NCBI GenBank assembly: GCA_963792585.1
Contig: CAWBWI010000003.1
Coordinates: 576,001 to 640,000, forward strand
Direction: 5' to 3'
Origin: Candidatus Eiseniibacteriota bacterium
GTDB taxonomy: Bacteria; Eisenbacteria; RBG-16-71-46; CAIMUX01; VGJL01
Length of the DNA stretch: 64,000 nt
Shown: positions 11,081 through 47,791 of the stretch, one piece after another
How positions within the stretch are numbered: the stretch's first letter is position 1
How the letters are laid out: each line of letters starts with the position of its first letter
Notes under the pieces: generated by a model
Database searches by the model: none
What the model was told of the DNA's origin: nothing
What the model saw: only the letters and a program-made list of their open reading frames with translations
Program-made: the position numbers and the translations under genes

Positions 11081-11320
11081 CGTCCGGTTTCGTCTCTGTC
11101 AGTTGGCCATGGGAGAGAGGGCTCTCTGATCCTGGAGCCGCGATGTTGACGGATCAAGGCGCGCACGACACCGGCTGGCCCGACCGAGCCGGTGCTGCTA
11201 CCAGCTCGATGTCGCTGGCGAAGACGGGGTCGATGCCGTCGGTCGGGGAAACGCCGGCCCGGCTTCCTTCCCAGGGCGGCTTACTCAGGGGTCGAATCCG
11301 GCGGCAGGAGAGAGATGCTC

Positions 11321-12967: not shown

Positions 12968-12982
12968 TCAAAGAGGATGGGC

Positions 12983-20423: not shown

Positions 20424-20457
20424 TTATTCCGAAATGCCAATATACTCAAGCGCTTTC

Positions 20458-20486
20458 AGACTAGCGCGAGAGGAGATTTCAGTCAA
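20458..20486 (-). promoter_or_regulatory. sigma70 promoter of the lexA operon (TTGACT-17-TAGTCT)
   Basis: Read directly on the minus strand, 17-bp spacer. Confidence 0.65.
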
Positions 20487-20636
20487 GAGGATTGCCTGCC
20501 CGACGGTGGACTGAGGCAGTAGACTGGACGAACCAAACTTCACCCTAGCTTCTGCGATGGTTCCGAACTGCTATCCCGTGGTGCGATCGCCACCGAGTGG
20601 GGACGATGTGGATGTTTTTGAGCTTCTAACCCATTC

Positions 20637-20927
20637 ATGATGAACCATCTATCTAGTAGCCTCGACAACCTTCCCGCGACCCCCGAGCTCTCCGATGACG
20701 ACGTGGCCGAATTCCAACAACTCATGAAGGACGAAGCCGGCGTTGACCTGACGCCGGGCGAAGCCCGACTCCGAGCCCAGGACCTGATCCGTCTGATGGC
20801 CGTGATCGCACGGCCGTCGAAGCCAGCGACAGAGGAACCTGCCCCGGTCGCCTTGAAACATCTGGAGCACTGGGACCACCTGCTCGGCAGGCTCCAGACC
20901 CTCTCGCAAGCCTTGCTTCAGATTTGA
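20637..20927 (+). CDS. Small hypothetical protein, paralogue of 23056-23304
   Basis: DVAEFQQLMKDEAGVDLTPGEARLRAQDLIRLM. Confidence 0.65.
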   Translation: MMNHLSSSLDNLPATPELSDDDVAEFQQLMKDEAGVDLTPGEARLRAQDLIRLMAVIARPSKPATEEPAPVALKHLEHWDHLLGRLQTLSQALLQI

Positions 20928-21011
20928 CCCCACTCGAACGATTGGGTCTGGCCGCTCCGAGAAGCGCGAGCCCTCCTCACGGACGTCTTCTCGCTCCGGA
21001 TTCTTGAAGCC

Positions 21012-21383
21012 GTGAAGCGTAAACCTTGGCAAACACTCGGCTACGACCCACTCCTGGTTCCGCTCCCCAAGCTCCTCGATGACCTGCGTGATCGCGTGCG
21101 TCCGGAGCTTCCACTTCGGACTACGAGTGTTGTGGCCCTACTCGAGCGCCTGAACCACGAGGCGAACATGATGACCGTGGGCGGCTGGGTTCTCCTGAGC
21201 CGGGATCTCCCTCGGCTCTTGCTCGACGTCATCCTCGTGACTCGCGTCGGGCTCCTTCCGGCGACGTCGATCTGTCCGCCCGAGTACACACAGACGATTG
21301 AGCGCGAGCTTGAGTCGCTCGACCACCGACTCTTGCTCCTCGAAGCTGAAGGACAAGGGAGGCTAGCTCACCCGCCGCGGTAG
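21012..21383 (+). CDS. Hypothetical protein
   Basis: 123-aa ORF converging on the recombinase at a hairpin. Confidence 0.45.
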   Translation: MKRKPWQTLGYDPLLVPLPKLLDDLRDRVRPELPLRTTSVVALLERLNHEANMMTVGGWVLLSRDLPRLLLDVILVTRVGLLPATSICPPEYTQTIERELESLDHRLLLLEAEGQGRLAHPPR

Positions 21384-21398
21384 GCGGGGAATGCGTCG

Positions 21399-21438
21399 CA
21401 AGGGGGAGGTCCGAGTGCTCAGACCTCCCTCCCCCTTG
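21399..21438. terminator. Hairpin between convergent genes
   Basis: CAAGGGGGAGGTC...GACC...TCCCCCTTG. Confidence 0.5.
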
Positions 21439-23040
21439 TCAGGTTTCTCGTGGCGTGATTTGATAGGGGTCGGTGGCCGCACCGGACGCATTCTCGAGGT
21501 CAGGAATCACGAAGTATTCGGTCGTATCCTGGATCCAGGTTCTGACGTCCTCCCACCGGGTGCACCAGTTCGACAATGACCCCGCATCCGAGATGAGACT
21601 GAACGGATTCTTGAGTAGGATTCGCAGTTTTCGGTCGCGGAGCGTCGAGTTCAGACCGACTGCCTCGAGTATCATCCGGCGCTGAACCGGCGTCCCGGAT
21701 CGAAACGTTTCCGCAGCCCGGGCCGCGAAACTGAATGTTGACGCAGTAAGTCCGGCAAGTTCCTCTCGTGATCGCATCGGTGCCGCCAGGCGAGCCTGGA
21801 GGCTCTTTTCGCGTTCATCCATCTCTTGCTTCCGACTCAGGTACGTTTCATCCGGGACGAGTTCCTTCAGACGCAATGTCAGGAGGTTTCCGGCCTCCCG
21901 CCGGACGGATGCCAACGACTTCTCGAGCATCCGACGGGATGATTCGCTCCGCGCGTGTTCGCTCGCGAGCGTCTGCCGCACGCGTCCGAGCACCCACTCC
22001 AGAACTCGCTCAGGCATCGTGAGTCGAGCCAGGACACGCTCGATCTGTACTTCGAGATCCCCTTCCGCGACCGCGGCCTCGCGACAGGTCCTTCCGGTCC
22101 GATTCCAGGAGCAGCGATAGTAGACGTACCGGCGGCCCGATGGCTTGACGTGCTCTTCGGCCGACACGCTCGCGCCGCAGTTGCCGCACCGGAGTAGTCC
22201 GGTATATGCGAACGCGTGTCTCTTGGGTCGCGGGCGTCCCGGCCGTCCCAGGAGTTCCTGAACGCGCACGAACTCCTCACGCGTCACCATGACCGGGTGC
22301 GATCCCGGGAAGGTCTCGCCGGATCGCAACCGGAGCACGCCCATGTAGTACGGATTCGCGAAGATCTTGTAGAGCGCCGACGCGGTGAGCGGCTGCCCTC
22401 CGGTCCGCTTGAACTGCCGGGTACGGAAGCCCCAGTCCTTGTTCGCGATCGCGCGAATCTGAGACGGTCGCACGGTTCCGGTCAGCATGAGCTCCCACAT
22501 GCGCCGAACCAAGTCGAAGCGCTTCGGGTCCTTTACGATCGTCTTCGCGAGAGGGTCGTTGACGTAGCCGAGGGGCGGCAAGAAGTTCGGCCACCCGCGC
22601 TGGAACCGCGCGCGATTGCCCCGCTTCACGTTCGCTCGGAGGTCGTCGATGAACTTCGTTGCGATGCCCAGCTCGAAGTTCCCCATGAAGCGGTCGTTTC
22701 CGTCTCTGGTGTACGTGCGGTCGGATGTAACGACTTCCTCCAGTTTGCCGTCGGCGAGTGCCTGGAGAATGGCGCCTGTGTCCAGATGGTTGCGCGCAAG
22801 GCGGTCCATCTTCCAGCAAATGACCCCACGAATCTGCCGCCGGTCAATCCGACGCATGAGGTTCCCGAACACGGGCCTCCCTGGCGCCTTCGCCGACTTC
22901 GCTTCGGTAAGCACCTCATGGACCGCAATCCCTTTCCGCGCGGCAATGGAGTGGAGTTCTCGTACCTGAGAATCGATCGAGAGGACCTGGCGGTCTTCCG
23001 ATTCTGTCGATTTGCGGGCGTAGATGACGTAAGGGGTCAT
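21439..23040 (-). CDS. Large serine recombinase (resolvase + recombinase + zinc ribbon)
   Basis: YARKSTESEDRQVLSIDSQ, WKMDRLARN, NPYYMG, GLLRCGNCG, YYRC. Confidence 0.95.
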   Translation of the reverse strand: MTPYVIYARKSTESEDRQVLSIDSQVRELHSIAARKGIAVHEVLTEAKSAKAPGRPVFGNLMRRIDRRQIRGVICWKMDRLARNHLDTGAILQALADGKLEEVVTSDRTYTRDGNDRFMGNFELGIATKFIDDLRANVKRGNRARFQRGWPNFLPPLGYVNDPLAKTIVKDPKRFDLVRRMWELMLTGTVRPSQIRAIANKDWGFRTRQFKRTGGQPLTASALYKIFANPYYMGVLRLRSGETFPGSHPVMVTREEFVRVQELLGRPGRPRPKRHAFAYTGLLRCGNCGASVSAEEHVKPSGRRYVYYRCSWNRTGRTCREAAVAEGDLEVQIERVLARLTMPERVLEWVLGRVRQTLASEHARSESSRRMLEKSLASVRREAGNLLTLRLKELVPDETYLSRKQEMDEREKSLQARLAAPMRSREELAGLTASTFSFAARAAETFRSGTPVQRRMILEAVGLNSTLRDRKLRILLKNPFSLISDAGSLSNWCTRWEDVRTWIQDTTEYFVIPDLENASGAATDPYQITPRET

Positions 23041-25401: not shown

Positions 25402-25562
25402 CCCAACCGCCCTCCCGGGGCCTCATCTGAGGCTCGTTCCCATCGGCAGCTCTCCTTGCGGACTGCCCCGTGCACCGCCGATTCCCGCGCAAGAAGGGAC
25501 CGGAACCGCACGGTCCTCTCGGGAGGGCACCACCTCATCCAAATTTCACTTCAACACGCACT

Positions 25563-26066
25563 ATGCTTCCCATCATCCTCGGCATCGATCCCGGCACGAA
25601 GTATCTCGGCATGGCCGTCACGGACGGCCAGCGCTTCCTCGGCGGAGGCGTCCACACACTCCAGAATGGGCACCGGCCGCATGACGTCATCGGACAAGCG
25701 CGGAAGGTCGTCCTCTCTTATGTGGAGCGGTTCAACCCGAAGATCGTGGCGATCGAGAAGCCGCTCCTCTACCCAACCAAGCGAGCGGCGCTCGTCTCGG
25801 TCATATCTGAAGAATTGCAGGCGCGCTCTCGTGATATCGGCATCACCGTGCACGAGATCGGCGCCCGTGAGGCGCGCCAGATGGTCCTCGGAAATGAGCG
25901 GGCAACGAAGTTCGATGTCGCGCACGCGCTCGTGAAGATGGGGTTCACGGAACTGCAGGAGAAGCTACCCGCGAAGCCGCCGCACCCGGTGCTGGGGTAT
26001 CCGGCCAAGGAGCTGTACTGGTTGCACATGTTCGACGCGCTGGCCATTGCGGTGGCAGTAGCATGA
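25563..26066 (+). CDS. ruvC: Second RuvC-like resolvase
   Basis: ILGIDPG, VAIEKP, ATKFDV, FDALAIA. Confidence 0.8.
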   Translation: MLPIILGIDPGTKYLGMAVTDGQRFLGGGVHTLQNGHRPHDVIGQARKVVLSYVERFNPKIVAIEKPLLYPTKRAALVSVISEELQARSRDIGITVHEIGAREARQMVLGNERATKFDVAHALVKMGFTELQEKLPAKPPHPVLGYPAKELYWLHMFDALAIAVAVA

Positions 26067-29238: not shown

Positions 29239-29511
29239 CTACGGCCGCTTGAGCGTCGCGTCGTGGTCGCCGATCACGCGGAGATAGAGCGTGTCCTCGT
29301 GGATCTGGAACGTGAGCCGGTATTTCATCGTCACGGTCGCTTCCCAGATGTCGAGGGTTCCCTGGATCCGCTTCGCCCGCAGGCTCGGATGGAAGGGCTT
29401 CCCGCCTTCCTTGGCGGCGAGGAGGCGGATCGCCTTGTCAGCGCGGGGCTGCACTTCTTTTGGGAGTGAGTGGTAGCAGACCGCGAAGGTCTCGGAGAAG
29501 ACGACCCTCAT
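29239..29511 (-). CDS. RelE/ParE-family toxin
   Basis: HPSLRAKRIQGTLDIWEATVTMKYRLTF..LRVIGDHD; ATGA overlap with the antitoxin. Confidence 0.85.
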   Translation of the reverse strand: MRVVFSETFAVCYHSLPKEVQPRADKAIRLLAAKEGGKPFHPSLRAKRIQGTLDIWEATVTMKYRLTFQIHEDTLYLRVIGDHDATLKRP

Positions 29512-29801
29512 TGCTTTCGAGATGGCCGCTTCTTGAGGGCCAGGATGGCAGCGTCGGCGGATTCCGCTTCGAGCGTGCGCCCCGCCCGGAAGTCGGCGTC
29601 GGTTTTCGTCTCGAGCGCCCGCCAGCGGGGGCTCCAGAACCACGCTTGCTCTGGGTCGATTTCCGCAACGGCGGTGATGAGGATCCCCTGAGGAGTGGCC
29701 TCGAACGAGACGTATTGCCCCTCTTCCACGGGATAGGCCTTTCGAACGTCCTCCGGGATCGTGACCTGGAACTTCCGGCGGATCCGGGCTTTGGTGGCCA
29801 T
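29508..29801 (-). CDS. AbrB/MazE-family antitoxin
   Basis: FQVTIPEDVRK..EEGQYV; EQAWFWSPRW. Confidence 0.85.
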   Translation of the reverse strand: MATKARIRRKFQVTIPEDVRKAYPVEEGQYVSFEATPQGILITAVAEIDPEQAWFWSPRWRALETKTDADFRAGRTLEAESADAAILALKKRPSRKQ

Positions 29802-29857
29802 TTCGGGCTCCTTGAGGTGGGTTGGCATGCGGTTGAGAGTTAGAGAATCGTACTGTC

Positions 29858-30520: not shown

Positions 30521-30627
30521 ATGGGCCGCGGCTGGCTGGTAAGGACGGGGTCCCAAACCCCTGGAAGCTGGCCTAATGCGCGGCACTTCATGTTTCGTTG
30601 ATGCCAGTTAGGCCCATGTGGCTTCAC

Positions 30628-30643
30628 CCCTGCGTTGCCATTT
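30628..30643 (+). repeat. att-like end sequence, copy 2
   Basis: Identical to 653-668; similarity continues into CGATCnCCGAAACC. Confidence 0.7.
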
Positions 30644-31109
30644 GTGTTTTGCGGCTCCGATCACCGAAACCACGTATCCTACCAAGGAGTTACCCGCGCG
30701 AACCGAAGAACTGGGCCGACCGTTTCCGCCAGCGGAGGATGGACCTTGGGCTCACACAGGCGGGACTGGCCGACCGCCTCGGCCGGACGACGCGGGCCGT
30801 GGCGGATTGGGAATCGGGGGCGACCAGGCCGCTCGCGTCGTCGTGGGGAGCGATCGCCCGGGTCCTCGGGTCCGATCTTCTGCCTGACTGAGCCGAGATC
30901 GGGTCCCGACTCCTGACCGCCCCCTGGCGCCTCGGGCGACCCAGAGGGAGTTGGCCGTGAGGGTCGGCCTGGATCCCCCGACGATACGGAACATGGAGCG
31001 GGGGCGGTATCGGTCGAGCCGGGCGACTCTGGCGAAGCTCGGGTCAGCTCTCCAGGACACTGAAGCGGTCAATCAATCGGTCGCGGAGTGGTCCGTGCAA
31101 CATGTGTGA
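30628..31109 (+). pseudogene. Disrupted multi-HTH XRE regulator, paralogue of 660-1277
   Basis: LRSPKP..YPREPK..RQRRMDLGLTQAGLA..WE, then a second HTH (TQRELAVRVGLDPPTIRNMERG) after a stop. Confidence 0.7.
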
Positions 31110-31211: not shown

Positions 31212-31260
31212 TTGACAGGATGGACAGGTGCATGGCATATTCCTGACAGGAGGATGTCAG
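31212..31260 (+). promoter_or_regulatory. Promoter (TTGACA...TGnCATATT) plus palindromic operator CTGACA-N6-TGTCAG
   Basis: TTGACA at 31212-17, -10-like at 31236-41, palindrome 31243-31260 overlapping the AGGAGG RBS. Confidence 0.7.
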
Positions 31261-31262
31261 CA

Positions 31263-32597
31263 ATGCGGATCGTCCTTTACCAACCACCCACCGAAGCGAC
31301 TCGGGCTTACCTCGACGCAACGGGGCGAGAGCAGACTTGGCTACCTCATGGGCTGCTTTGCGTCGCTGGAGTCTTGGACGATCGTCTGTGGGAGATCTGC
31401 CTGATCGATGGGCGTCTTCAGCCTAATGGGGCATTGGACGATCTTCACATCCGCTTGCAGGGTGCCGACGTGTTGGCCTGCTCCGTCATGACAGGGCATG
31501 CGATCACCTGGGCACTGAGAGCTTCTGGCCTAGCCAAGGAGTCCGGCATCTCGACCATCTGGGGAGGACCACACCCCACACTCTTCCCGATCCAGACTCT
31601 AAGCCACCCGCTCGTGGATTACATAGTCGGGTCGGGACGAGGAGAAGAGACGTTCGGTCAATGGGCCCGTGCTTTCGCTTCGGGCGAGGCAGTCGAAGGC
31701 ATCCCAGGTCTCGGGTACAAGCATGACAGCACCCCTATCCTAACACCTAGGCCAAACACCCCTTCACGGCCGCGAGACGACTTCCCCCCGCCTCGGCTCG
31801 ATCTCCTGGCCGACTTCAGTCCTTACCTAATGGACGACCCCGCCATTAGCCCAATGGTCACGAATCACGTAACATCCCTAGGGTGTCCATATGCCTGCAC
31901 GTTCTGCTCTGAGCCAACACTGTCAGGACGCAATTGGTTCGCGTGGTCGGCTACTAGATCATTCCAGGAGGTTCAGCGGCTCGTAGCCGCCAGTGGAGCG
32001 ACGGGGATCAAGCTTCACGATGCTCTGTTCTTCGTCGACATGCGCCGGGGCCTGGAATTTGCACGACGGGTCACCGCACTCAATATCAGGTGGGCTGCCA
32101 CCATGCACCCGGTCACTCTCTCGAAGATTGACCGGGGCACGCTCTCCGATCTCCGCCGCAGCGGCTTATCGCGTTTGATGGTGGGATTAGAGTCTGGTAA
32201 CCAGCAGGTAGTGGATCTGGTGGGCAAACGGTTCAGCGTCCGCGCCATTCCGACCATGGCGAGCAAGCTCCGGGATGCGGACATTATCGGAATGTTCAGC
32301 ATGGTGGTCGGCTTTCCCACCGCCGACCCGAGCGAGTACTCCGACACCATCCGGAGCGCTCACGAGATTCACCGGATTTGGGACCGCCATCAGGTCAAGA
32401 TCCACTACGCCAGTCCTTGGCCTGGTACTACAATGTGGGAATCTGCTCTCACAGTGCCCGGCTTCACCCCCCCCGCTGACCTCCTCGGATGGGCTAGCTA
32501 CGACTACTACCTTGCCCAAATGGTATTCCATGACAGGTCCTGGACAACTGCAATCGACGCTATCAACCGTGCTTACTGTCCTTACTACCATGCGTGA
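31263..32597 (+). CDS. B12-binding-domain radical SAM enzyme
   Basis: PHGLLCVAG, WGGPHPT, GEET, TSLGCPYACTFC, GLESGNQ, VGFP, PWPGT. Confidence 0.9.
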   Translation: MRIVLYQPPTEATRAYLDATGREQTWLPHGLLCVAGVLDDRLWEICLIDGRLQPNGALDDLHIRLQGADVLACSVMTGHAITWALRASGLAKESGISTIWGGPHPTLFPIQTLSHPLVDYIVGSGRGEETFGQWARAFASGEAVEGIPGLGYKHDSTPILTPRPNTPSRPRDDFPPPRLDLLADFSPYLMDDPAISPMVTNHVTSLGCPYACTFCSEPTLSGRNWFAWSATRSFQEVQRLVAASGATGIKLHDALFFVDMRRGLEFARRVTALNIRWAATMHPVTLSKIDRGTLSDLRRSGLSRLMVGLESGNQQVVDLVGKRFSVRAIPTMASKLRDADIIGMFSMVVGFPTADPSEYSDTIRSAHEIHRIWDRHQVKIHYASPWPGTTMWESALTVPGFTPPADLLGWASYDYYLAQMVFHDRSWTTAIDAINRAYCPYYHA

Positions 32598-32607
32598 GGA
32601 GCGCCCC

Positions 32608-33720
32608 ATGAATGCGACCCATGCACCCCTATCTGACATCCTTCTACGCGCATCCGTTAGTTCCCGATGCAACTTCAACTGCAGTTACTGCCCGAAGGAT
32701 GCTACGGCTTCGGGAGGGATGGAGAACTACGCCCCAGATCATCTCGCCGGAAACGCTTTGTCTCCTAACGGCTGCACCGAAGCTCTCCAGCACATCCGCA
32801 ATTGTCTCGGTGTAAGAACAGTCAGCTTCACGGGTGGCGAACCAACACTCAACCGTTCCCTTCCTGACCTGTTGGTATCAGCTCGCGCGCTATTCGATCG
32901 TGTTGAGATCACAACTAACGGGTCCGACCACGACGACTCCATGGCCACGCGGTTCGCGCGAGTGCCACTAGACCTCGTCAAGATTAGTCTCGATGCTACG
33001 GACCCTACCTCATTCGCCGTGATCACCGGCGTCAACAACCCTGCGGTCTTCCAGGGGGTGATTGAGACGGTACGGACGTTGGCAGCTCGCGGGGTACCGA
33101 TGGCGCTTAATGCCGTCGTGATGCGCAGCACTCTAGCCAGTCTTCGCAAACTGATCGCGTTCGCTCGGATGGTGCCCTGTCCCATCCATCTCCTCGACTA
33201 CGTCTTCTATCCCTCCAAGCGAGACCACTGGGAGACTGAGTTCGTCCCCATGGAATTCCTCGCGAATGTCTTCACCGAGGAGTACGGTCCCCCTAAGACA
33301 GTCACCCGATACGGATGCACATTTTACACCTACAACTTAGAAGACATCTACATCCGCTTCAAGGATTCCATGACGGCGACAACTCGCGCTCCGGCTTGTA
33401 GCCGCTGTATGGAGTACTGCCAAGAAGGCCCCTACGGCCTAAAGCTAAGCGTCGAAGGCTGGGTCACTGCTTGCCCATCAATCGATCCGAGAAAGGGGGT
33501 CGCCCTGCCAGCGGGCTTGGACAGCAACGACGCTGCGGATCGCCTCGCGACGCTCGTTCCAATGTTCACCAATACAGAAGTAGACACGCGCTCATTCGCG
33601 CACTTTCTTCGCAGGTGGGATCTACATCCTGCGGTCACGAGAGATGAGGTTCGGCGGACTGTCAGGTCTTGTGGACCTGTGACACAGCGCACCACCAAGC
33701 GTTCCGCTGGATGGTCATGA
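32608..33720 (+). CDS. MoaA-like radical SAM enzyme
   Basis: LRASVSSRCNFNCSYC, FTGGEPT, ITTNG, KISLD, C-terminal CSRC..CQEG..C. Confidence 0.85.
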   Translation: MNATHAPLSDILLRASVSSRCNFNCSYCPKDATASGGMENYAPDHLAGNALSPNGCTEALQHIRNCLGVRTVSFTGGEPTLNRSLPDLLVSARALFDRVEITTNGSDHDDSMATRFARVPLDLVKISLDATDPTSFAVITGVNNPAVFQGVIETVRTLAARGVPMALNAVVMRSTLASLRKLIAFARMVPCPIHLLDYVFYPSKRDHWETEFVPMEFLANVFTEEYGPPKTVTRYGCTFYTYNLEDIYIRFKDSMTATTRAPACSRCMEYCQEGPYGLKLSVEGWVTACPSIDPRKGVALPAGLDSNDAADRLATLVPMFTNTEVDTRSFAHFLRRWDLHPAVTRDEVRRTVRSCGPVTQRTTKRSAGWS

Positions 33721-35120
33721 CCTCACGTCGGACAATGGAGACGCACGGTATGTTCATAGTCAACCCAACACCCGACAAGCACGAAGAGGAGCTCCTCGAT
33801 CTGGCTGCTCCAATCAGATTCGATCCATACTTTACATTTGGGCGTGGGCCAGCGGTGATGGGGAGGGTTGTCGACCTTAGAGCCTCTCCGGACGGGGCGC
33901 ATCTCGTCCTACGCTCGCCGGACGGCGACCGACGCTTCTTAATCCGGTTCCCCGATACGCCGGGAGTCGCCGAGGTACGACCAGGAGACCACATCGCACT
34001 CGTAGTCGAATCTACCTCCATAACCGCGTTCGCGATACTCAGTCGAGCGGAACGTGCCACCCCGGACGCTGCGGATTGGGGCTCTCCAGAGAACGAGACC
34101 ACCCGCTTGCGACAGCGTGAGGTCGACTTGTTGGTCCGGCCTTCCGCCCGCCGCATGGTCGAACAACGCAGCGCGATTCTCTTCGGAATTCGCCAACACC
34201 TACAGCAACTGGGTTTCATTGAACTTGAGCTCCCAGTCTTGAAGCGGCATCCAGACGTGGCTCCAGCGCAGCACTTTGAGGTCGTCGACAACAACGGACG
34301 GCACCTCTATCTTCGCACCACGTTCCCGCCATTCGAGCGCATGTTCGTGTCCCTCGACCGTGCATATACGATCGGACCCAACTTTCGCAACGGGGACTGG
34401 AGCCATAAGAACATACCGGAGTTCACGATGCTGTGCTTGATGATGCGCGGGGCTACGTACCTTGACGCGCACCGTCTTGTCCGCGCGATGATGGCGACGG
34501 TTGTTGCCGACGTAATGGGCACGAGCATTGTTACTTTCCGTGGCCAGCAGTTCAATCTCCGCTCCTGGGAGGAGGTCAGTCTCGTGCAGGAGGTTCGCGC
34601 TCGGCTTGGCGTAGAACTGGCTGAACTGGACGACGACAAAGAGATGACGCGGTTCGCGTCCCGTCATGGGATCACATCTCCAGCTAGCTCGCCAGGTGGA
34701 CATTTGATGCGGGCCGCTCTCTTCGATCGGCTCTTCGAGGCACTGATCGTTCCAGCCTTTCCTGGCCCCACATTCTTCACTGACGTGCCCTGGTATCTGG
34801 CTGGCCCCGCCGAACCGCACCCAAGCATGCCAGGTATCAAGCTCCGTGGAGAGGGTTATGTGGCCGGCATGGAACTCACCAATGCGAAGAACATCCTGAC
34901 CGATCTCGACGCGCTTCGCAGGTGGCACGAGCGCATCGCTCAGGAGAAGCGTAGTGCGGGCTTTAAAGAGGAGTACGCGGCGGTTGATAAGGATTACCTG
35001 CGATCTATTGAGTACGGCCTCCATCCCGGCGCACTGTCCTCGATCGGCATCGATCGTCTCGTCATGTTGGCTCTCGGTGTTGACCATATCTCGGAGGCCG
35101 TCATGTACCCCGTCCCTTGA
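33717..35120 (+). CDS. Class II lysyl-tRNA-synthetase-like ligase (divergent paralogue)
   Basis: Motif 1 GFIELELPVL, motif 2 FRNG..PEFTML, motif 3 YGL..IGIDRLVM; degenerate OB fold. Confidence 0.85.
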   Translation: MTSRRTMETHGMFIVNPTPDKHEEELLDLAAPIRFDPYFTFGRGPAVMGRVVDLRASPDGAHLVLRSPDGDRRFLIRFPDTPGVAEVRPGDHIALVVESTSITAFAILSRAERATPDAADWGSPENETTRLRQREVDLLVRPSARRMVEQRSAILFGIRQHLQQLGFIELELPVLKRHPDVAPAQHFEVVDNNGRHLYLRTTFPPFERMFVSLDRAYTIGPNFRNGDWSHKNIPEFTMLCLMMRGATYLDAHRLVRAMMATVVADVMGTSIVTFRGQQFNLRSWEEVSLVQEVRARLGVELAELDDDKEMTRFASRHGITSPASSPGGHLMRAALFDRLFEALIVPAFPGPTFFTDVPWYLAGPAEPHPSMPGIKLRGEGYVAGMELTNAKNILTDLDALRRWHERIAQEKRSAGFKEEYAAVDKDYLRSIEYGLHPGALSSIGIDRLVMLALGVDHISEAVMYPVP

Positions 35121-35155: not shown

Positions 35156-36121
35156 ATGCTCACACTTCTCCCTAAGCCCCTAACTCCAGGCGACACGGTC
35201 GGAATAGTCTCACCGTCCGGACCTGTTCGTGACCAGCAGCAATTCGAGCGGGGTCTAGCCGTGCTCAGAGAGCGTGGGTACCGGCTGAAGATCGCACCTC
35301 ACGCCCTAGGGCGCACATTCCATATGTCGGCCGCTGGATCAGACAAAGCCGCCGACCTCATTGCGATGTTCACTGATCCTGAAGTGACGGCGATCTTCCC
35401 TAGTGTAGGTGGCCACACGGCCAACCAGGTTCTCGAGCAATTGGATTACCATTCAATCGCACTGCACCCGAAGCTTCTACTCGGCTTCAGTGACAGTTCC
35501 GTTCTGCTGAATGCCATCTACGCGCGCACCGGACTTGTGTCGATTCATGACAACGCTGATGTCATGTTTGGTCTGGGCCGGTTCGGGGACGAGCGGTTGG
35601 CGACCCGAGGCGAATACACGGCCCGCTACCTCTTTGCGGCCCTTGAGACGCCCTTACCTCTCGGACGGATCGAAGCACTAACGGAGTGGCAGTGTTTGCG
35701 ACCTGGGCGCGGGACTGGCCTCGCCCTCGGAGGCAACCTGTCCACGCTGCGTTCAATTATCGGATCTCCGTTTGAGCCGGACTGGGCCTCGGCCATTCTC
35801 TTCCTGGAGGACAAGGCCGAGCCTCACGTGTGGGATCAGCAGCTCGGCCATTTACGGTTGACGGGCATACTGGCCAAGATAGCGGGACTCGTCGTCGGTA
35901 AGGTGGAGAACAAGCCGGAACAGTTCTACAAGGAGAACTATCAAACCCTCGCCGACATTGTGCTTCGCCACTGCGAAGGCTATGGGTACCCGGTCCTATA
36001 TGGCGCGGATTTCGGCCATGACGTTGAGAACTTCGCGATCCCCATAGGCGTTCGGGCGCAGGTGGATGGCGCTGACAAGTCCGTGACCTTCCTGGGCGCC
36101 GCAACGACCAACCGGATGTAG
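35156..36121 (+). CDS. S66 peptidase (LD-carboxypeptidase / MccF-like)
   Basis: PGDTVGIVSPS, GFSD (Ser), GGNL, LFLED (Glu), DFGH (His). Confidence 0.9.
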   Translation: MLTLLPKPLTPGDTVGIVSPSGPVRDQQQFERGLAVLRERGYRLKIAPHALGRTFHMSAAGSDKAADLIAMFTDPEVTAIFPSVGGHTANQVLEQLDYHSIALHPKLLLGFSDSSVLLNAIYARTGLVSIHDNADVMFGLGRFGDERLATRGEYTARYLFAALETPLPLGRIEALTEWQCLRPGRGTGLALGGNLSTLRSIIGSPFEPDWASAILFLEDKAEPHVWDQQLGHLRLTGILAKIAGLVVGKVENKPEQFYKENYQTLADIVLRHCEGYGYPVLYGADFGHDVENFAIPIGVRAQVDGADKSVTFLGAATTNRM

Positions 36122-36125
36122 GGGC

Positions 36126-37352
36126 ATGACACCGCAGCGTCTCGTCATCGGTTTGCCGTCTTTCAATGAAGCCGCCACGATCGGAGCGGTTACCCGCGTA
36201 CTTGACGACGCTGCTTGTAGCCTTACCGGTCTGTGTTGTCTGCTCTGTAATGCGGATAGCGCCTCCGAGGATGGCACGGCCGACGTGTTCCTACGTACCC
36301 CGACAAGGACGCCGAAAGTGTCGCTCGTAACTGGATCCGCCACCGAGAGGGGCAAGGGTCGGAACGTGTTGGCTATTCTCGAACGCGCATCTGGCCTTGA
36401 CGCCGCTTGCGTCTTCTACGATACAGATCTGGTCAGCATCACGCCAGAATGGCTCAAGACGTATGTCGCCGCAATCATCCGCGGATACGACTTCGTCACA
36501 CCGTCGTATCGGCGCGCAAAGCACGCAGCCTCAGTGACAAACACGACACTATACCCCCTCGTTTGCGGCATTCTAGGGGCCGACATTCGGCAGCCGATCG
36601 GGGGCGATTTCGGCCTGTCCAGCGACTTCATCGCTCACGTTCTGAAGAGTCGTAGCGGTCTCGATCCCGCGCTGGACCTTTCCGGCTTCGGTATCGACGC
36701 CTTTCTGACTTGCAGCGCTCTTGAGCGTGACGTGCGTATCTGCGCGGTTCACCTCGGGACTAAGGTACATCGCCCGAAGAATCCCGCTCATGACCTTCTG
36801 CACATCTTTGCCGAAGAGGTGTTGACTACCTTCGCATTCATTCTGCGATACGCCGAGGGCCCGACGGCGCAAAGAACAATTCCCGTCCTTGGGCAGGCGG
36901 GGGAGGGGGACCTTCCTCACCCAGGCGTGGACTGCGGAGAGCTGAGCCTGGCAGCAACGCGTCTTTACGCAGCGCAGGAAAGCGAGATCACTGCATGGCT
37001 CCCTGTTGATGCCTTTCCAGACGTACATAACACACTTCGCACGTCCTTGCGGCCGCGTCTGTCCAATGGCCTATGGTGCGACATTCTTGTAGAAGCGCTG
37101 GTCGCGTTTGCCCGCGCTAGAGCAGTCGAATCCGTCGAGACGCGGCGAGTGAGCTATCGGAGACTTGGATCCAACTTGTATCCTCTCTATCTTGCCAGGT
37201 TGGTCGATCTCGTGGAGGAGACCAGAGACCTGCCCGATGACCTTGCAGAGGACGTGTTTCTATCTTATCCCACAGCGCTCCAACAGAGAAGCGGCCACCT
37301 TATTCGTAAACTGACGCAATGCCTATCCACAGCGCCCACGCTGGTCCGATAA
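36126..37352 (+). CDS. GT-A glycosyltransferase, glucosyl/mannosylglycerate-synthase-like
   Basis: PSFNEAATI, GKG, DTD, IRQPIGGDFGLS, FGID, LGTKVH. Confidence 0.85.
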   Translation: MTPQRLVIGLPSFNEAATIGAVTRVLDDAACSLTGLCCLLCNADSASEDGTADVFLRTPTRTPKVSLVTGSATERGKGRNVLAILERASGLDAACVFYDTDLVSITPEWLKTYVAAIIRGYDFVTPSYRRAKHAASVTNTTLYPLVCGILGADIRQPIGGDFGLSSDFIAHVLKSRSGLDPALDLSGFGIDAFLTCSALERDVRICAVHLGTKVHRPKNPAHDLLHIFAEEVLTTFAFILRYAEGPTAQRTIPVLGQAGEGDLPHPGVDCGELSLAATRLYAAQESEITAWLPVDAFPDVHNTLRTSLRPRLSNGLWCDILVEALVAFARARAVESVETRRVSYRRLGSNLYPLYLARLVDLVEETRDLPDDLAEDVFLSYPTALQQRSGHLIRKLTQCLSTAPTLVR

Positions 37353-37456
37353 CGCAGCAGGAGGAGTCGAATGTCCGTGGATCGGATACCCAACCAAACG
37401 CGATATGCAGTCAGAGGCGCTCCTTCCATGGAGCGGTCTGTGTCGCGAGGGAGGGA

Positions 37457-38764
37457 ATGACGATGATTCTTGTAATCGGCGCTTCTGGCTTCCTGGGTAG
37501 CCGCCTCATTGCGGCACTGTCGCGGGAAGGGCCGGCCGTCGGTACATGCTGCAATGACAGGCTTCGCGACATGCTGGACTGCGATCTGCGCGTCGATTCG
37601 GCGCTGGACCGAGTGTTGTCCATGGCCGCGGGCAAGGTCGTTTACTTCTGCGCCAACGTTGGTGGCCGCCAGACTGCTGCAAGTGCTCCGGCCGACGCCT
37701 ATCGTGTGAACGCCTACGCACCGAGTCGCATCGCTGCAGTGGCAGCTCAGTTCGTTTACTTCTCGACGGACTACGTGTTCGACCGGCCCGGCATGGCTAC
37801 GGAAGAATCGGCGCCGAGCCCTGATTCGATGTACGCAAGGTCCAAGGCGGACGGCGAGCGTGCCGTTCTTGCGGCTTCCGATACCGTACTGGTAGTCAGG
37901 ATATCGGGTCTGTTCGATGCGCGGGGCACACGAAACGTGCAGTTTGCAGACGCAACAGCTGTTCGGCCTCCCGACAACCGAATGAGCAACCCGACCTTCG
38001 TTCCCGATTTGCTCTCGGTCGTCCGCCTATGGCAGTTGGCCGGCATACGTGGTATTCGTCATGCCTGCGGTCCAGATACGCTTTCCGAATATGAGTTCCA
38101 TCAACTCGCAAGCTTGCGCTGGGGTTACGACGTCCATCCATCACTCTCCTCATCGCCCCGATTCGGAACGCGCTTAGTGTCCTCGTCGCCCGGTGCCATT
38201 CGAAGTCCTTCAGAAGTGTTTATTGATGAACGCTCGCAGGCCTCGTGTGAGATGTGCGGTGACCAGGTGCTCGTTGCTGACACCGTGGGAGTCGTTCTTT
38301 CCGGAAGGAGATGGAAGGAGACCGACCCTCGCTTCTGGTTGGACGTCAATTCCGATCCGAGCGCGACCCTTCGTACCTTGGGCCCAGAGCGAGTGGCCGC
38401 TGCCTACTGCCCAAACCCTCGCTTCTGGCGCATGCTTCGTACGCGACCTGCGGCGGTCAGGATGGTCCTGGCAAACAACGGACCCTGGGAGTCGTTTTTC
38501 CTATGGCAGACTAGGTATGGCCTCTCACGCATATTCGAGCTTGTCATAAACTCCGAGCGAGACAAGATAGTTAAGCCGCAGCGGGCGTTTCGGGCCGGAA
38601 TCGACGCATTTGCAGGTGGACGGTCAATCCATCTGATCGATGACCATTGCGACGTCGTGACCGCCGCAACGAACTGGGGATGGATCGCCAACCAGACGAC
38701 TCTCGTTTCTACGTGGCCCATCGAGGAGTACAGCTACCCGGGAATGGAGGCTATATGGGCATAA
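37457..38764 (+). CDS. RmlD-like NDP-sugar reductase (SDR) fused to a HAD-like domain
   Basis: GASGFLG, STDYVFD, YARSK; C-terminal DTVGV, LANN, KP, IDD. Confidence 0.8.
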   Translation: MTMILVIGASGFLGSRLIAALSREGPAVGTCCNDRLRDMLDCDLRVDSALDRVLSMAAGKVVYFCANVGGRQTAASAPADAYRVNAYAPSRIAAVAAQFVYFSTDYVFDRPGMATEESAPSPDSMYARSKADGERAVLAASDTVLVVRISGLFDARGTRNVQFADATAVRPPDNRMSNPTFVPDLLSVVRLWQLAGIRGIRHACGPDTLSEYEFHQLASLRWGYDVHPSLSSSPRFGTRLVSSSPGAIRSPSEVFIDERSQASCEMCGDQVLVADTVGVVLSGRRWKETDPRFWLDVNSDPSATLRTLGPERVAAAYCPNPRFWRMLRTRPAAVRMVLANNGPWESFFLWQTRYGLSRIFELVINSERDKIVKPQRAFRAGIDAFAGGRSIHLIDDHCDVVTAATNWGWIANQTTLVSTWPIEEYSYPGMEAIWA

Positions 38765-39762
38765 CGAACGTGAGAACCGGTACGCGCGCCATTCCCCTGT
38801 CACCGATCAGCCGGCAGATACACACCGTCAACGGGCCGTTCGCCCCCCGAACGACGCTGATCAAGCCATCCCATTTCCCGAGTCCTTATGATCGCTTCCG
38901 GACCGGTGAGTATCTATTCATGACTCGGATCGCCGGATACCAGATTGGCGGATCCGCGCGGTACAGAGAAGGTAAAAATCGTGTCCTCGTAACTCTATAC
39001 GCACCGCGTCAGCAGTCTAGTCCGGGAAACCTCGGTCAGGTCCAGCAGGAAGTCGCCCGACGTTTGGGCCTGCATGACGACCTGAGCGGCTACGAACGCA
39101 TCTGGGCAGGAGACCCCATTCTACGTTCCCTACCGTCGGAAATGATGGGCGCCCGGCCGTCTAGTCCATTTGCGCTCTATGAGTTTCTGGTGATTTGCAC
39201 GCTGCTGCAGAACACGGTGGTACGTCGGACAGTTCAGATGGCCAATGCACTCGCGGAATACCTCGGGGGTCTCTTCCAGTTCCCGGATGGCACGACGCTC
39301 CGTGGGTTCTGGGAACCTGGTGCGTTGGTGAGTGTCGGCGAGTCGCGCCTTCGTGAGTTGCGTCTCGGATACCGGGCGAAGACCTTAGTCCGCTTCTCCG
39401 AGCAGTTCTCTAACCAACCAACACTCGAAGCGGACCTGCTTGGCCTTGCGGGACATCCTGATAGTCTTCGCGACGCCATCGATGACATATATGGTGTTGG
39501 ACCGGCCTCCGCAAACTACGTTCTTTTCGAGTGGTTCAAGTGCACCGGGGCGCTGTTTACACTGTCGCCTTGGGAAGCCAGGATCTTGTCTCGCCTGCTG
39601 TTCAAACGGGATGATGTCGTTGCGTCCCGAACGATGGCGTTCTGCCAGCGGCGGTGGGCACCGCACGCGATGCTTGCCGTTCACGCGGTCTTTGAGACGG
39701 CGTTTTGGGCGCGCGCACGAGGAGAGGGACCGGAGTGGCTCAATGAACTCATTCGGCTCTAA
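38755..39762 (+). CDS. HhH-GPD DNA-glycosylase-like protein (AlkA/OGG1 fold)
   Basis: LYEFLVICTLLQNT, LRLGYRAK, HhH IYGVGPASA, W.P.A.LA. Confidence 0.75.
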   Translation: MGITNVRTGTRAIPLSPISRQIHTVNGPFAPRTTLIKPSHFPSPYDRFRTGEYLFMTRIAGYQIGGSARYREGKNRVLVTLYAPRQQSSPGNLGQVQQEVARRLGLHDDLSGYERIWAGDPILRSLPSEMMGARPSSPFALYEFLVICTLLQNTVVRRTVQMANALAEYLGGLFQFPDGTTLRGFWEPGALVSVGESRLRELRLGYRAKTLVRFSEQFSNQPTLEADLLGLAGHPDSLRDAIDDIYGVGPASANYVLFEWFKCTGALFTLSPWEARILSRLLFKRDDVVASRTMAFCQRRWAPHAMLAVHAVFETAFWARARGEGPEWLNELIRL

Positions 39763-40579
39763 CAACCTTCGGCGGATGCGGACGGCAGTGCGCAACGCGC
39801 TCGCAGCTGGAGGAGCGGAAGAACTCGAGGAGGAAGCTGATGCAATCATGGAGCATATCGCACGTATGGGATTCTTGGCGGAAGAACCGATGAGTGCACT
39901 CTTGAGTTCCTTGGCAGCCGGGGTATCTCCGTACCTGCTAACCGGCAAGTATCGTATTCGGGGGACAGATCATGTGATCCGTGTGGCACCGGGTGTGATG
40001 CCACCAGGTGGCGACACGTCGCATGTCACCGATATCCTCCGCGAATTCGTACGCAGCTCATCTCCGAGGCTGTTGGCGGACATCGGGTGCGGGACCGGAG
40101 TCTTGGGCATTTCGGGTTTGATCGCCGATCAGGGCTGTCTAGCTGTCCTAGTGGACTCAGACTTCACGGCCTGCCGCGCCGCTCACAGTAACCTTAGGTA
40201 CCTTGGGCTCTTGAGCCGTGCGCACGTCGTTTGTGCCACGGGGTTGGAGTCCCTTCGCTCGAACGTACTGGACTTACTGGTCGCCAATTTGCCATTCGTG
40301 CCCACTGCCTTGGTATCCTCCTTGCCGGCACGCTTCGGCCGATACGTCCCTTCTCACGCCGTGGATGGAGGCCCCGATGGACTGGCCCATATACGGCACC
40401 TACTGTCCCAGATCTGTAGGGTGGTTCGACCGGGCGGTAGACTGATCCTCCAAATCGGCACCGGTCAGAAGGGGGCTGTCGCCAACATGCTGGGCAGCTC
40501 GTGGCTGCAAGACCCGGCTTCGACGATCCAGCACGACACCTTGGTGGTGGCACACCGTGTAGGGAATCAGTTCTCATAA
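39743..40579 (+). CDS. PrmC/HemK-like SAM-dependent methyltransferase
   Basis: YLLTG, PGVMPP, DIGCGTG, ANLPFVP, AVDGGPDGL. Confidence 0.8.
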   Translation: MNSFGSNNLRRMRTAVRNALAAGGAEELEEEADAIMEHIARMGFLAEEPMSALLSSLAAGVSPYLLTGKYRIRGTDHVIRVAPGVMPPGGDTSHVTDILREFVRSSSPRLLADIGCGTGVLGISGLIADQGCLAVLVDSDFTACRAAHSNLRYLGLLSRAHVVCATGLESLRSNVLDLLVANLPFVPTALVSSLPARFGRYVPSHAVDGGPDGLAHIRHLLSQICRVVRPGGRLILQIGTGQKGAVANMLGSSWLQDPASTIQHDTLVVAHRVGNQFS

Positions 40580-40583
40580 TTCA

Positions 40584-41657
40584 ATGCAATCACACATGCA
40601 ATCAGGAGCTTCAGCAGCACTTCCCTTCGGCACACGTGCGAACGCCGCACGTCTTTCGGCCATTGTCTTGATTTTGTACGCCCGCAACAACGTTACCGGC
40701 GAGGAGCTGGCATCTAAGCTCGGCGTGACGCTTCGCACGGTTTATCGCGACGTAGCTCGCCTCGAGGGACTCGGGTTCCCCATAGCAGCCAGTCCAGGCC
40801 CTGGCGGTGGCTTCACTCTGGACTTCATGTCAGCAGAAGAAGGAGGCATCGCCACTGAACGAGACCTTCTCGATGTCTTCGCACGGACCGGGCTGACGGC
40901 TCCCGATAATGCGACCCTTGACGCAGTAATCGGAATGGCCGGCGATGCTATTACTGCGGCCGATTTGCAGAGTCTTCGCAATGCTGCAGATCGTATCCTC
41001 TTCGATCCAGAAGAGTGGTACAGGAGAACGAGACCTCCGGCGGACTTCGGGGTCGTTAGGCACGCCGTGCTGAACGATGTACGTCTTGACGTGGCATTCA
41101 CTGAGCGCACAGGGCCGGGACTTATCGAAGACGTGTTTGATCCCTACGGGCTTATTTGGAAGGGGGGGGTGTGGTACATCTACGGCTACAGTCATCGGGA
41201 ACGGGGGATGCGCCGGATTCGCGTTGAGCGGCTTGTTCGAGCACAGATGAGCGCTGAGCACTTTCGGCGGCCCAAGGACTTCGACTTGTTGCAGCAATGG
41301 CAAGAAGAGCTTGAGTCCTTCGGCAAAGGAACTACGCGCGTTGTCATTCGCATTGAGCAGTCCGTCGTGCCAGAATTCGAGCACTTCAATTGGAAGCGCG
41401 AGAACAAGATCATCAGGAAGCGGGACCATTGGCTCGTGGAAATGCGGGTCGACAATGTCGCATGGCTGGTGCCGCTCGTTCTATCATATGCCGGCGACGT
41501 CAGAATCCTCAGGCCTCCGGCACTCTGCGATCTCGTCCTCGCAGCTGCCCGGGCGGTTCTTGCCGCCCATTCTGGGGAACACGCCGGACCAAGCGGGAGC
41601 CATACCGACGATTCGCGTAGCCGCGCTGCCATTCATCGCCGTAGTCACCAGGAATGA
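40584..41657 (+). CDS. WYL-domain transcriptional regulator (HTH_11-WYL-WCX)
   Basis: ELASKLGVTLRTVYRDV, GPGGGF, DPYGLIWKGGVWYIYG, RVER, PKDFDL. Confidence 0.9.
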   Translation: MQSHMQSGASAALPFGTRANAARLSAIVLILYARNNVTGEELASKLGVTLRTVYRDVARLEGLGFPIAASPGPGGGFTLDFMSAEEGGIATERDLLDVFARTGLTAPDNATLDAVIGMAGDAITAADLQSLRNAADRILFDPEEWYRRTRPPADFGVVRHAVLNDVRLDVAFTERTGPGLIEDVFDPYGLIWKGGVWYIYGYSHRERGMRRIRVERLVRAQMSAEHFRRPKDFDLLQQWQEELESFGKGTTRVVIRIEQSVVPEFEHFNWKRENKIIRKRDHWLVEMRVDNVAWLVPLVLSYAGDVRILRPPALCDLVLAAARAVLAAHSGEHAGPSGSHTDDSRSRAAIHRRSHQE

Positions 41658-46910: not shown

Positions 46911-47639
46911 ATGTCCGGCATGCTTGTCCTGCACCGCGGCGGCTGGGAGGCGACGCCCGCCGACCTCGCCGCCGTTCCCGTGCCTGAAGAGACCGACTCG
47001 TACGTGCCGGTGCCCCATGGCCGCTTCGTCGAGGAGGTCGAACTCCACGTCCCACGCTTCGGCCTCACGATCACCGATGCCCGCTACGCGCTCGCTCACG
47101 ATGGAATGCAAATGTTTGGGGTCCTGACCTGCACGAACGGTCAGAACCACGCGGACTACGGGCTCGCCATCGGTCTCCGGAACTCCTACGACCGTTCACT
47201 GTCCGTGGGTCTCGTGGCGGGAAGCCGGATCTTCTGCTGCGACAACCTCGCCTTCTCGGGTGAGGTGGAGACCAACCGCAAGCACACGGTGAACGTGTTC
47301 CGGGATCTGCCCGATCTCATCTACCGCATGCTCTCGCAGGTTTCGTCGATGCGGAGCCGGATCCACGCGGAGATCGCGGCGATGAAGGAGCGGGAGCTGT
47401 CACCCGAGACGGCCGACCATCTCATGGTCGAGGCGGTTCGCAGGAACGTCCTTCCTGCTTCGAACCTTCCCAAGGTGATCGAGGCATGGGAGAAGCCGGC
47501 GCACGAGGCCTTCGCGCCCCGGACCGCCTGGTCGCTCTTCAACGCCTTCACGGAAACACAAAAGTCACGGAGTCCGCGTGTCCAGATGGACTCCGGGCTC
47601 CGGCTCGCCAGCACCTTCCGGAGCGCGCTCGCGCTCTGA
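46911..47639 (+). CDS. DUF932-family protein
   Basis: YVPVPH, MFG, GLRNSYDRS, FCCDNLAF, TAWSLFNAFTE. Confidence 0.85.
   Translation: MSGMLVLHRGGWEATPADLAAVPVPEETDSYVPVPHGRFVEEVELHVPRFGLTITDARYALAHDGMQMFGVLTCTNGQNHADYGLAIGLRNSYDRSLSVGLVAGSRIFCCDNLAFSGEVETNRKHTVNVFRDLPDLIYRMLSQVSSMRSRIHAEIAAMKERELSPETADHLMVEAVRRNVLPASNLPKVIEAWEKPAHEAFAPRTAWSLFNAFTETQKSRSPRVQMDSGLRLASTFRSALAL
47609..47639 (+). repeat. 31-bp direct repeat (DUF932 3' end), copy 1
   Basis: CAGCACCTTCCGGAGCGCGCTCGCGCTCTGA identical to 49370-49400. Confidence 0.9.
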
Positions 47640-47674: not shown

Positions 47675-47791
47675 CCTCAGCTTCGAAGACGGCCCCCGAT
47701 ACGCCGGCTTGCGCTATCCTACTTGGCAGGGATGCACCACTTGTGGCCACCCCTATACCAACAGCGGAATGGGCCATCATGGAGGTCATGG

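Follow-up and report, generated by a model that had tools for sequence, protein, structure and literature searches.

The 64,000-nucleotide stretch analyzed here (positions 576,001 to 640,000 of contig CAWBWI010000003.1 from a Candidatus Eiseniibacteriota bacterium; "the window" means this whole stretch) contains a gene for a paralogue of lysyl-tRNA synthetase (LysRS) in which the residues of adenylate chemistry are retained and those that hold lysine are replaced in every known family member. The rebuilt pocket supports the view that this LysRS-like protein is not a lysine-charging LysRS. Activation of another substrate fits because the gene sits in a conserved cassette of enzyme genes, and we judge it about an even call that the protein is an adenylate-forming ligase using a non-lysine substrate in a small-molecule pathway.

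Coding Frame and LysRS Ancestry

33717/33750..35120, + strand: LysRS-derived paralogue, OB-like N-terminal domain plus class II core (Pfam, NCBIfam, solved relatives)

The longest frame of the gene (33669..35120, + strand, 483 amino acids) begins at a TTG codon. The ATG at 33717, used as the start in an earlier note on this DNA, overlaps the stop codon of the upstream radical S-adenosylmethionine (radical-SAM) gene (ATGA). The ATG at 33750 appears the likelier start, 33717 being also possible, because GGAG lies 9 nt upstream of it and because it agrees with the N-termini of the homologues and with the 456-residue database form, P0001. The translation contains YLRTTFPPFERMF, GPNFRNGD, PEFTMLCLMM, TNAKNILTD, and SIGIDRLVML, and all the strings quoted in the earlier note are present in it. 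That note had read FRN, PEFTM, and GIDRL as class II motifs 1 to 3; the strings do persist, with the correction that motif 2 comprises both FRN and PEFTM, GIDRL being motif 3. The motif 1 proline (ELPVL, P162) is invariant in the family.

The gene is of LysRS ancestry. The class II D/K/N core was recognized by PF00152 (tRNA-synt_2) over residues 142-481, at 115.9 bits against a gathering cut-off of 25. LysRS models ranked first in NCBIfam, well under their own cut-offs (NF001756, 198 bits against 468; TIGR00499, 177 bits against 427.6), and the nearest solved structures are LysRS (expect value, E, 5e-41). The EpmA/GenX model TIGR00462 scored 106.8 bits, against a cut-off of 286.9. A separate, true lysS gene occurs on contig 7 of the host genome (G000, 5.4 Mb, 7 contigs), where it scored 578 and 648 bits, above the LysRS cut-offs; no EpmA above cut-off was found in the seven contigs.

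A Retained Adenylation Site and a Rebuilt Pocket

Residues were numbered on annotated Escherichia coli LysU, aligned with the family, its sister groups, and canonical LysRS, the literature number being the precursor position minus 1. The positions read were G216, E240, R262, E264, H270, N271, F274, E278, Y280, R412, E414, E421, N424, F426, E428, G473, G475, and R480. For the ATP and lysine pocket residues other than Glu428 and Arg480, the roles are those that we take the LysU structure papers to assign. Excerpts of one report state that Glu428 binds lysine and that Arg480 binds the gamma-phosphate of ATP (PMC8251883), and the offset-corrected numbering agrees with the naming of both residues there. 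The family alignment (A2) holds 10 sequences that are 38-62% identical to the window protein.

The claim of the earlier note that the ATP motifs are kept and the lysine-binding residues lost was borne out on both counts. R262, F274, R412, E414, E421, N424, and R480 are retained in all 10 family members, and the same set without N424 is kept across all 40 Lys-type rows save for one row of canonical LysRS, P0065, where R412 and E414 are replaced by Q and D. In the window protein, E240 is replaced by P193, E278 by C229, Y280 by M231, F426 by K380, E428 by I382, G473 by L429, and G475 by S431; in the motif 2 loop, E264 is replaced by G215 and H270 by N221. Most of these changes are fixed in 10/10 members (E240 to P, E278 to C, F426 to K, G473 to L, G475 to S, E264 to G, and H270 to N), and an invariant D follows the G at the E264 position. 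The two remaining positions are also changed in every member, E428 to I or V and Y280 to M, A, V, C, or T.

The four lysine positions E240/E278/Y280/E428 read E/E/Y/E in 12/12 canonical LysRS rows, in E. coli LysU, in 8/8 EpmA rows, and in 3/3 rows of sisC, a sister group described below, whereas they read P/C/M/I in the window protein. The alignment with LysU and EpmA that the earlier note had proposed as a check thus gave no conservation of the pocket residues in the LysRS-like family. The family alignment has 95 invariant columns, which take in the residues of the new pocket as well as PWYLAGPAE, a segment specific to the family. The pattern of retained and replaced residues, which holds in 10/10 members at this divergence, is far beyond chance. 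On balance, the pocket has lost three acidic residues and one aromatic residue, has gained a lysine and a cysteine, and bears bulkier residues at two former glycines. This suggests a shallower pocket that would not be negatively charged and would be ill-suited to lysine or another basic side chain.

The N-Terminal Domain and the Predicted Fold

An AlphaFold2 (AF2) model built from the family alignment had a mean predicted local distance difference test score (pLDDT) of 72.9 and a predicted template modeling score (pTM) of 0.68, with N-terminal residues 14-98 all-beta at a pLDDT of about 80. A Foldseek search with the 456-residue model returned LysRS chains first (9slz_A, E 5e-25, TM-score 0.71, 446 alignment columns including gaps). 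The full-length match and the all-beta N-terminal domain together argue that the two-domain LysRS architecture is retained in the predicted fold.

The domain ahead of the core, of about 105 residues, is shortened and poorly conserved in comparison with the OB domain of canonical LysRS. Pairwise identity within the family is 0.30 in this domain versus 0.54 in the core (36 pairs); for canonical LysRS (n = 5) the values are 0.47 and 0.59. The description of the OB fold as degenerate in the earlier note is therefore fair; the domain is all-beta by prediction. The Pfam OB model PF01336 was not detected in any family member. The domain is beta-rich and aligns with that of LysRS, and the columns of the LysRS GK..F aromatic, IQ glutamine, and GE glutamate are variable or deleted in the family. 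In human LysRS, F144, Q155, and E195, together with R136, make base-specific contacts to U35/U36, according to excerpts of PMC11878792; the first three would presumably correspond to the bacterial GK..F, IQ, and GE motifs. Because the N-terminal domain evolves faster and the anticodon-contact motifs are variable or deleted, tRNA recognition looks eroded in the LysRS-like family.

Phylogeny, Rarity, and Selection

A tree of 41 rows was inferred with IQ-TREE (LG+G4, ultrafast bootstrap and SH-aLRT supports, AspRS outgroup), the long-branch row L025 being omitted. The core family was recovered with support of 100/100. It was joined in turn by three sister groups, here termed sisA (P0124, P0126; 100/98), sisB (P0125, P0127-P0130; 99/100), and sisC (P0135, P0140, and the copy from locus L019; 94/90). 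The resulting clade is the sister of canonical LysRS (95/89), and the EpmA clade (96/94) lies outside it. The pocket is graded along this series: E240/E278/Y280/E428 read E/E/Y/E in sisC, T/T/G/(P,H) in sisB, P/(S,C)/G/(V,F) in sisA, and P/C/x/(I,V) in the core family. The sister groups (P0124-P0130, P0135, P0140) add three or more undescribed clades to the divergent LysRS paralogues, and none of them reaches the LysRS or EpmA cut-offs.

The family is rare. A word-indexed search of 5.8 billion proteins, with 7997 candidates scored, returned nine relatives at 323-634 bits, the next-best scores falling to the 178 bits of ordinary LysRS. When 1.84 billion representatives were searched with a profile, three full-length clusters scored 629-759 bits and two fragments were also recovered, ahead of the sister set at 224-251 bits. 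The family alignment, used to scan 185,579 species genomes, yielded 65 pattern matches and no relatives, and viral contigs yielded none with either this alignment or the sister alignment (A4). Among plasmid records 102 matched, all below 60% identity and none a family member; the 10 matches listed had identities of at most 31%, and six of them are annotated lysS or lysU. Phage records gave 21 matches, again all below 60% identity and without a family member. Genome scanning with the sister alignment returned mostly EpmA or LysRS, L019, a contig of a Bryobacterales metagenome-assembled genome (MAG), being the sole informative return; a sister-profile scan of 401 genomes of the L019 phylum gave six matches (321-333 bits, about 500 amino acids), which are taken to be ordinary LysRS. 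Metagenome scanning supplied four loci: L007 (2.2 kb), L008 (10.1 kb), L009 (16.9 kb), and L010 (1.4 kb, ending inside the gene). No paper describing the family or the cassette was found in the open-access literature searched, where "LysRS paralog" referred to PoxA/EpmA only.

Within the host phylum the gene is present in 1 of 206 genomes, that of the host alone, and because of this restriction it is read as acquired and not duplicated locally. The gene is under purifying selection: between the window and L007, the ratio of nonsynonymous to synonymous substitution rates (dN/dS) was 0.119 over 348 codons, at a dS of 1.67, which is near saturation. Conservation of the new pocket itself, together with the dN/dS of 0.12, shows that the function has changed and not decayed.

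The MccF-Like Partner and the Radical-SAM Cassette

31212..32597, + strand: B12-binding radical-SAM enzyme (Pfam B12-binding and Radical_SAM; orthologues in L009, L008, and L019)
32590..33720, + strand: MoaA-like radical-SAM enzyme (frame open from 32275, ATG 32590 the likely start; solved neighbour MoaA 1tv7)
35156..36121, + strand: S66 serine peptidase of the MccF type (strong AGGAG ribosome-binding site, 36 nt past the stop codon of the LysRS-like gene)
36126..37352, + strand: GT-A glycosyltransferase, GpgS/MGS-like (orthologues in L008, L007, and L009)
37319..38764, + strand: RmlD-like reductase with a C-terminal HAD-type extension (Pfam RmlD_sub_bind; full-length match to the HAD-bearing L009 orthologue)
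38647..39762, + strand: Ogg/HhH-GPD-like protein (weak TIGR00588 match; 36% identical to L009 12464-13462; related to L019 3632-4867)
39440..40579, + strand: PrmC/HemK-family methyltransferase (Pfam MTS; start probably downstream of the start of the open reading frame, ORF)
40584..41657, + strand: HTH-WYL-WCX transcription regulator (Pfam HTH_11, WYL, WCX; PADLOC WYL; orthologues in L009 and L019)

The gene directly downstream of the LysRS-like gene encodes an S66 protein in 6/6 informative cases (the window, L007, L008, L009, and L019 twice); L010 ends inside the LysRS-like gene and is hence not informative on this point. The window protein contains the Pfam S66 N and C domains (111.8 and 108.9 bits) and scored 131 and 117 bits against solved MccF chains of Bacillus anthracis and E. 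coli, versus 56-75 bits against chains titled LD- or muramoyltetrapeptide carboxypeptidase. Of the cassette proteins, this one is conserved best (53-71% identity, dN/dS 0.079). S112, E218, and H288, which we take to be its catalytic triad, are invariant in 7/7 aligned rows. The four S66 copies of core cassettes share an extra loop at about 137-165, by which they differ from MccF, and the MccF loop with the nucleobase-stacking Trp gave no alignment with the partner. A second S66 gene lies elsewhere in the host genome and is distant, with 30% identity. According to excerpts of PMC8323819, in which S118 of E. coli MccF is named, MccF takes the aminoacyl part off aminoacyl-nucleotide antibiotics; immunity results from its removal of aspartate from processed microcin C, which is an aminoacyl-nucleotide.

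The cassette genes recur, in shuffled order, in the window, L008, L009, and L019, as established by Pfam scans and tblastn. For the MoaA-like radical-SAM enzyme of the window, the top NCBIfam models are MoaA, under cut-off; the L008 copy scored 182 bits to MoaA, and its Mob_synth_C match (32.4 bits) was below the cut-off of 37.4. The GT-A protein reached 24.4 bits with Pfam MGS_GT, whose cut-off is 27, and fell well short of that of NF010496. For the PrmC-like methyltransferase, TIGR03534 gave 96 bits in the window and 177 in the L008 orthologue, with a cut-off of 199. The fusion of RmlD with HAD occurs in the window and in L009, L008 having two PHP phosphoesterases instead, and it seems that the cassette pathway always requires a phosphatase step. 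The two PHP-domain genes of L008 lie at 139-903 and 2975-3676 (- strand).

The Ogg-like and WYL genes are both found in the window and in L009. In the Ogg-like protein, the Lys of the GVGPK motif is replaced by A, E, or Y in 3/3 copies (window, L009, and L019) and the catalytic Asp by S or A in 2/3. An active Ogg DNA glycosylase in the cassette was rejected on this lack of conservation; the protein may bind a base or a nucleotide without being a canonical glycosylase. Searches with PADLOC gave no match for the LysRS-like, S66, glycosyltransferase, and RmlD proteins, and the radical-SAM proteins matched pVip or PDC only weakly. Directly before the first cassette gene, at 30598-31109 (+ strand), are two short ORFs that look by eye like XRE-type helix-turn-helix proteins and that may be a second or broken regulator.

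L019 carries a variant cassette, with genes for two radical-SAM enzymes, one MoaA-like and one of the B12 kind, an Ogg-like protein, a LysRS-like protein of sisC type, an S66 protein, and a WYL regulator. In its sisC-type paralogue (4806-6668), which is followed by its own S66 gene, the lysine pocket is intact and the N-terminus bears a long extension. A sisB-type paralogue (9513-10268 / 12853-13416), split by an IS66 element (tnpB-like gene 12051-12410, transposase 10368-11870), is followed by the second S66 gene.

Proposed Function

The favored reading, that of an adenylate-forming ligase in a small-molecule pathway, can be put as a series of steps. The LysRS-derived enzyme keeps the residues of ATP/Mg-dependent adenylation and would be catalytically active; the substrate that it activates is predicted to be a different carboxylate, probably smaller and non-basic. 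The activated group would likely be handed to a non-tRNA acceptor built by the neighbouring cassette enzymes, so that a nucleoside- or sugar-type intermediate would carry an aminoacyl or acyl group in amide or ester linkage. That bond may then be cut by the S66 enzyme, in MccF-like immunity or pro-drug release, or the enzyme may transfer the group. Three things favor a small-molecule acceptor: the presence of genes for a glycosyltransferase, a reductase, and a phosphatase; the MccF-type partner; and the ascamycin precedent.

Several known systems resemble parts of this arrangement. LysS/LysU remains the best match in sequence and fold, with two domains, motifs 1-3, and R262, F274, E414, E421, and R480 in common, and differs at E240, E278, Y280, F426, E428, G473, and G475, as well as at E264 and H270. 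The earlier note had proposed that the protein adenylates a different substrate or ligates onto a non-tRNA acceptor, in the manner of EpmA. Of this, the change of substrate agrees with the fixed new pocket, the intact adenylation residues, and the enzyme cassette, but kinship with EpmA is not supported. The EpmA model gave 107 bits against 287, the protein branches outside the separate EpmA clade, and the EpmA pocket is intact in 8/8 rows. The N-terminal domain of the LysRS-like protein is missing from the eight EpmA rows (frames of 320-419 amino acids, with the model match starting from about residue 15-95), each of which exceeds the EpmA cut-off at 290-389 bits. EpmA/PoxA/GenX, the EF-P beta-lysine ligase, in which a LysRS paralogue has come to serve a non-tRNA acceptor, is thus an analogy in concept only.

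In the microcin C system, as here, an adenylating enzyme (MccB) is encoded alongside an MccF-type S66 hydrolase. MccB is E1/ThiF-like and acts on a ribosomal peptide, whereas the enzyme of the cassette is derived from an aminoacyl-tRNA synthetase (aaRS) and the tight cassette leaves no room for a precursor-peptide gene. A cluster for a peptide made by the ribosome and modified after translation (RiPP), or one of microcin-C type, was accordingly dropped as a candidate, the genes abutting one another, although a precursor encoded elsewhere is possible. In mycothiol synthesis, MshC is a class I ligase derived from CysRS that has kept its cysteine pocket and joins the amino acid to a sugar amine in an ATP-dependent reaction. 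The order of a glycosyltransferase, a phosphatase, and then an aaRS-derived ligase is similar in logic, with no homology between MshC and the LysRS-like protein. Excerpts of PMC4257720 describe an ascamycin cluster that joins the AlaRS homologues AcmD/AcmF, the hydrolase-fold enzyme AcmE needed for alanylation, and the B12 radical-SAM enzyme AcmH. This single cluster of aaRS homologues, a hydrolase-fold enzyme for the aminoacyl cap, and a B12 radical-SAM enzyme, whose product is an aminoacyl-sulfamoyl nucleoside, resembles the cassette. The two differ in that AlaRS and another hydrolase family are involved in ascamycin, in that its sulfur-activation genes are absent from the cassette, and in that a Streptomyces antibiotic cluster stands against a WYL-regulated cassette in a defence island.

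A more specific form of the small-molecule proposal, which we consider rather improbable, is that the LysRS-like ligase and its MccF-like partner are maker and antidote of an inducible aminoacyl-nucleoside poison that mimics an aminoacyl-adenylate and is built by the WYL-controlled radical-SAM cassette of defence islands. A self-resistant copy of LysRS was rejected as a candidate, lysine being impossible to bind.

Several observations weigh against the ligase proposal. In the motif 2 loop, the positions E264 and H270, which are E and mostly H in relatives and which presumably help to hold ATP in LysU, are G and N here. Nucleotide use may consequently be altered or weakened, and with these two changes the nucleotide may no longer be ATP. 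Confidence in the AF2 model is moderate (from a 10-sequence alignment), with pLDDT below 50 in several active-site loops, and the size and charge of the pocket were read off the alignment. The OB-like domain is kept in all members, while the EpmA rows used here lack it, and its retention could mean a nucleic-acid partner. Because the relative adjacent to an S66 gene in L019 keeps the lysine pocket, the S66 pairing is independent of pocket loss. Only five loci offer context, every relative comes from a metagenome or MAG, and the proposal is sequence-based.

Alternative Explanations

Among the alternatives, the one that survives best is that the protein is mechanistically still a tRNA synthetase, which would load a non-lysine amino acid onto tRNA for use by a cassette transferase, perhaps the S66 hydrolase; we regard this as unlikely yet far from negligible. 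The full two-domain LysRS layout, with the OB-like N-terminal domain in all members, would suit such a role, as would the intact catalytic residues, and the protein-acting EpmA, in the eight rows here, is without that domain. In the ascamycin cluster, moreover, AlaRS homologues flank the hydrolase-fold enzyme required for alanylation, a proposed user of Ala-tRNA in the excerpts of PMC4257720. However, the N-terminal domain is the weakly conserved part of the protein (0.30 versus 0.54 identity in the core), and the anticodon-contact motifs of canonical LysRS are variable or deleted. The 64-kb window contains no tRNA gene, and Pfam and NCBIfam scans found no cassette gene resembling a known family of aminoacyl-tRNA-dependent transferases.

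That the acceptor is a macromolecule, either a protein modified in EpmA style, perhaps a translation factor, or a DNA or RNA base, so that the cassette would be a modification system, seems quite improbable. EpmA shows that LysRS paralogues can modify protein, the PrmC/HemK-type methyltransferase and HhH-GPD/Ogg-like families act on translation factors or nucleic acids, and the OB-like domain is retained. The Ogg-like protein, however, lacks the usual catalytic Lys in 3/3 copies and the Asp in 2/3, and Pfam scans revealed no nuclease, restriction partner, or EF-P-like gene in the cassette. The peptidase partner, the GT-A protein, and the RmlD-phosphatase fit small-molecule chemistry better.

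It is very doubtful that the protein is a binder and not an enzyme, holding an aminoacyl-adenylate-like product of the cassette to confer immunity, to sequester it, or to sense it, in self-protection by target mimicry. A synthetase homologue that serves self-immunity is often encoded in clusters for synthetase inhibitors, according to excerpts of PMC5059758 and PMC8323819, and the MccF-like neighbour is of an immunity-enzyme type; the changes E264 to G and H270 to N might weaken ATP turnover. A pure binder, on the other hand, would not need the residues of adenylate chemistry, every one of which is invariant over 38-62% identity, and with the lysine pocket gone the protein could not substitute for LysRS. 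Finally, the chance that the gene is a decaying, functionless duplicate of lysS is practically nil, since, in spite of scores far below the LysRS cut-offs and the loss of the lysine residues, the conservation data refute it (an intact frame, dN/dS of 0.12, replaced residues invariant in 10/10 members, and an operon partner conserved in 6/6 pairs), as does the presence of the gene in only 1/206 host-phylum genomes.

Mobile and Defence Setting

6252-9862, + strand: Gabija-like pair (OLD-family AAA_15/TOPRIM ATPase at 6252-8132, UvrD-like helicase at 8129-9862)
15439-19221, - strand: TPR-GreAB-C-PIN protein of 1260 amino acids (TPR repeats, GreA/GreB C-terminal domain, PIN domain)
Within 19668-23040, - strand: LexA-like S24 repressor (19668-20423) and large serine recombinase (21439-23040)
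25470-26066: RuvC-like gene
29508-29828, - strand: MazE/AbrB-type antitoxin, overlapping a partner ORF of 134 amino acids at 29239-29643
46911-47639, + strand: DUF932 protein
47723-49183, + strand: Schlafen AlbA_2 protein
52457-56746, - strand: RHS-repeat protein of 1429 amino acids
60996-63998, + strand: C25 (gingipain-type) peptidase with propeptide

The LexA-like repressor and the serine recombinase suggest an integrated mobile element beside the cassette, and the MazE/AbrB-type gene with its partner ORF is probably a toxin-antitoxin pair just upstream of it. An rve transposase is also among the window genes around the cassette. At L009 the flanks contain two AbiE pairs and a UvrD-like fragment, and at L019 a DUF4011 helicase and IS66. 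The cassette is thus found in DNA in which conflict systems travel, which is an association and not a proof of function.

Significance

To our knowledge, few ligases derived from aminoacyl-tRNA synthetases have been described, for example EpmA, AsnA, MshC, and GluQRS, and each of them revealed new biochemistry. The LysRS-like family offers a natural experiment: the adenylation machinery has been held constant, the amino-acid pocket has been remade in its entirety and has since become fixed, and graded intermediates survive, with the pocket kept in sisC, partly changed in sisB and sisA, and fully changed in the core family. A natural product or conflict system yet to be described is indicated by the strict pairing with an MccF-type enzyme and by the WYL-regulated cassette, with its two radical-SAM enzymes, in surroundings that hold genes of Gabija, AbiE, and toxin-antitoxin systems; the LysRS-like gene provides a handle for finding it. 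If the proposal of a maker and its antidote were true, the cassette would encode a new chemical anti-phage or inter-bacterial weapon, which would act by jamming a tRNA synthetase or nucleotide metabolism.

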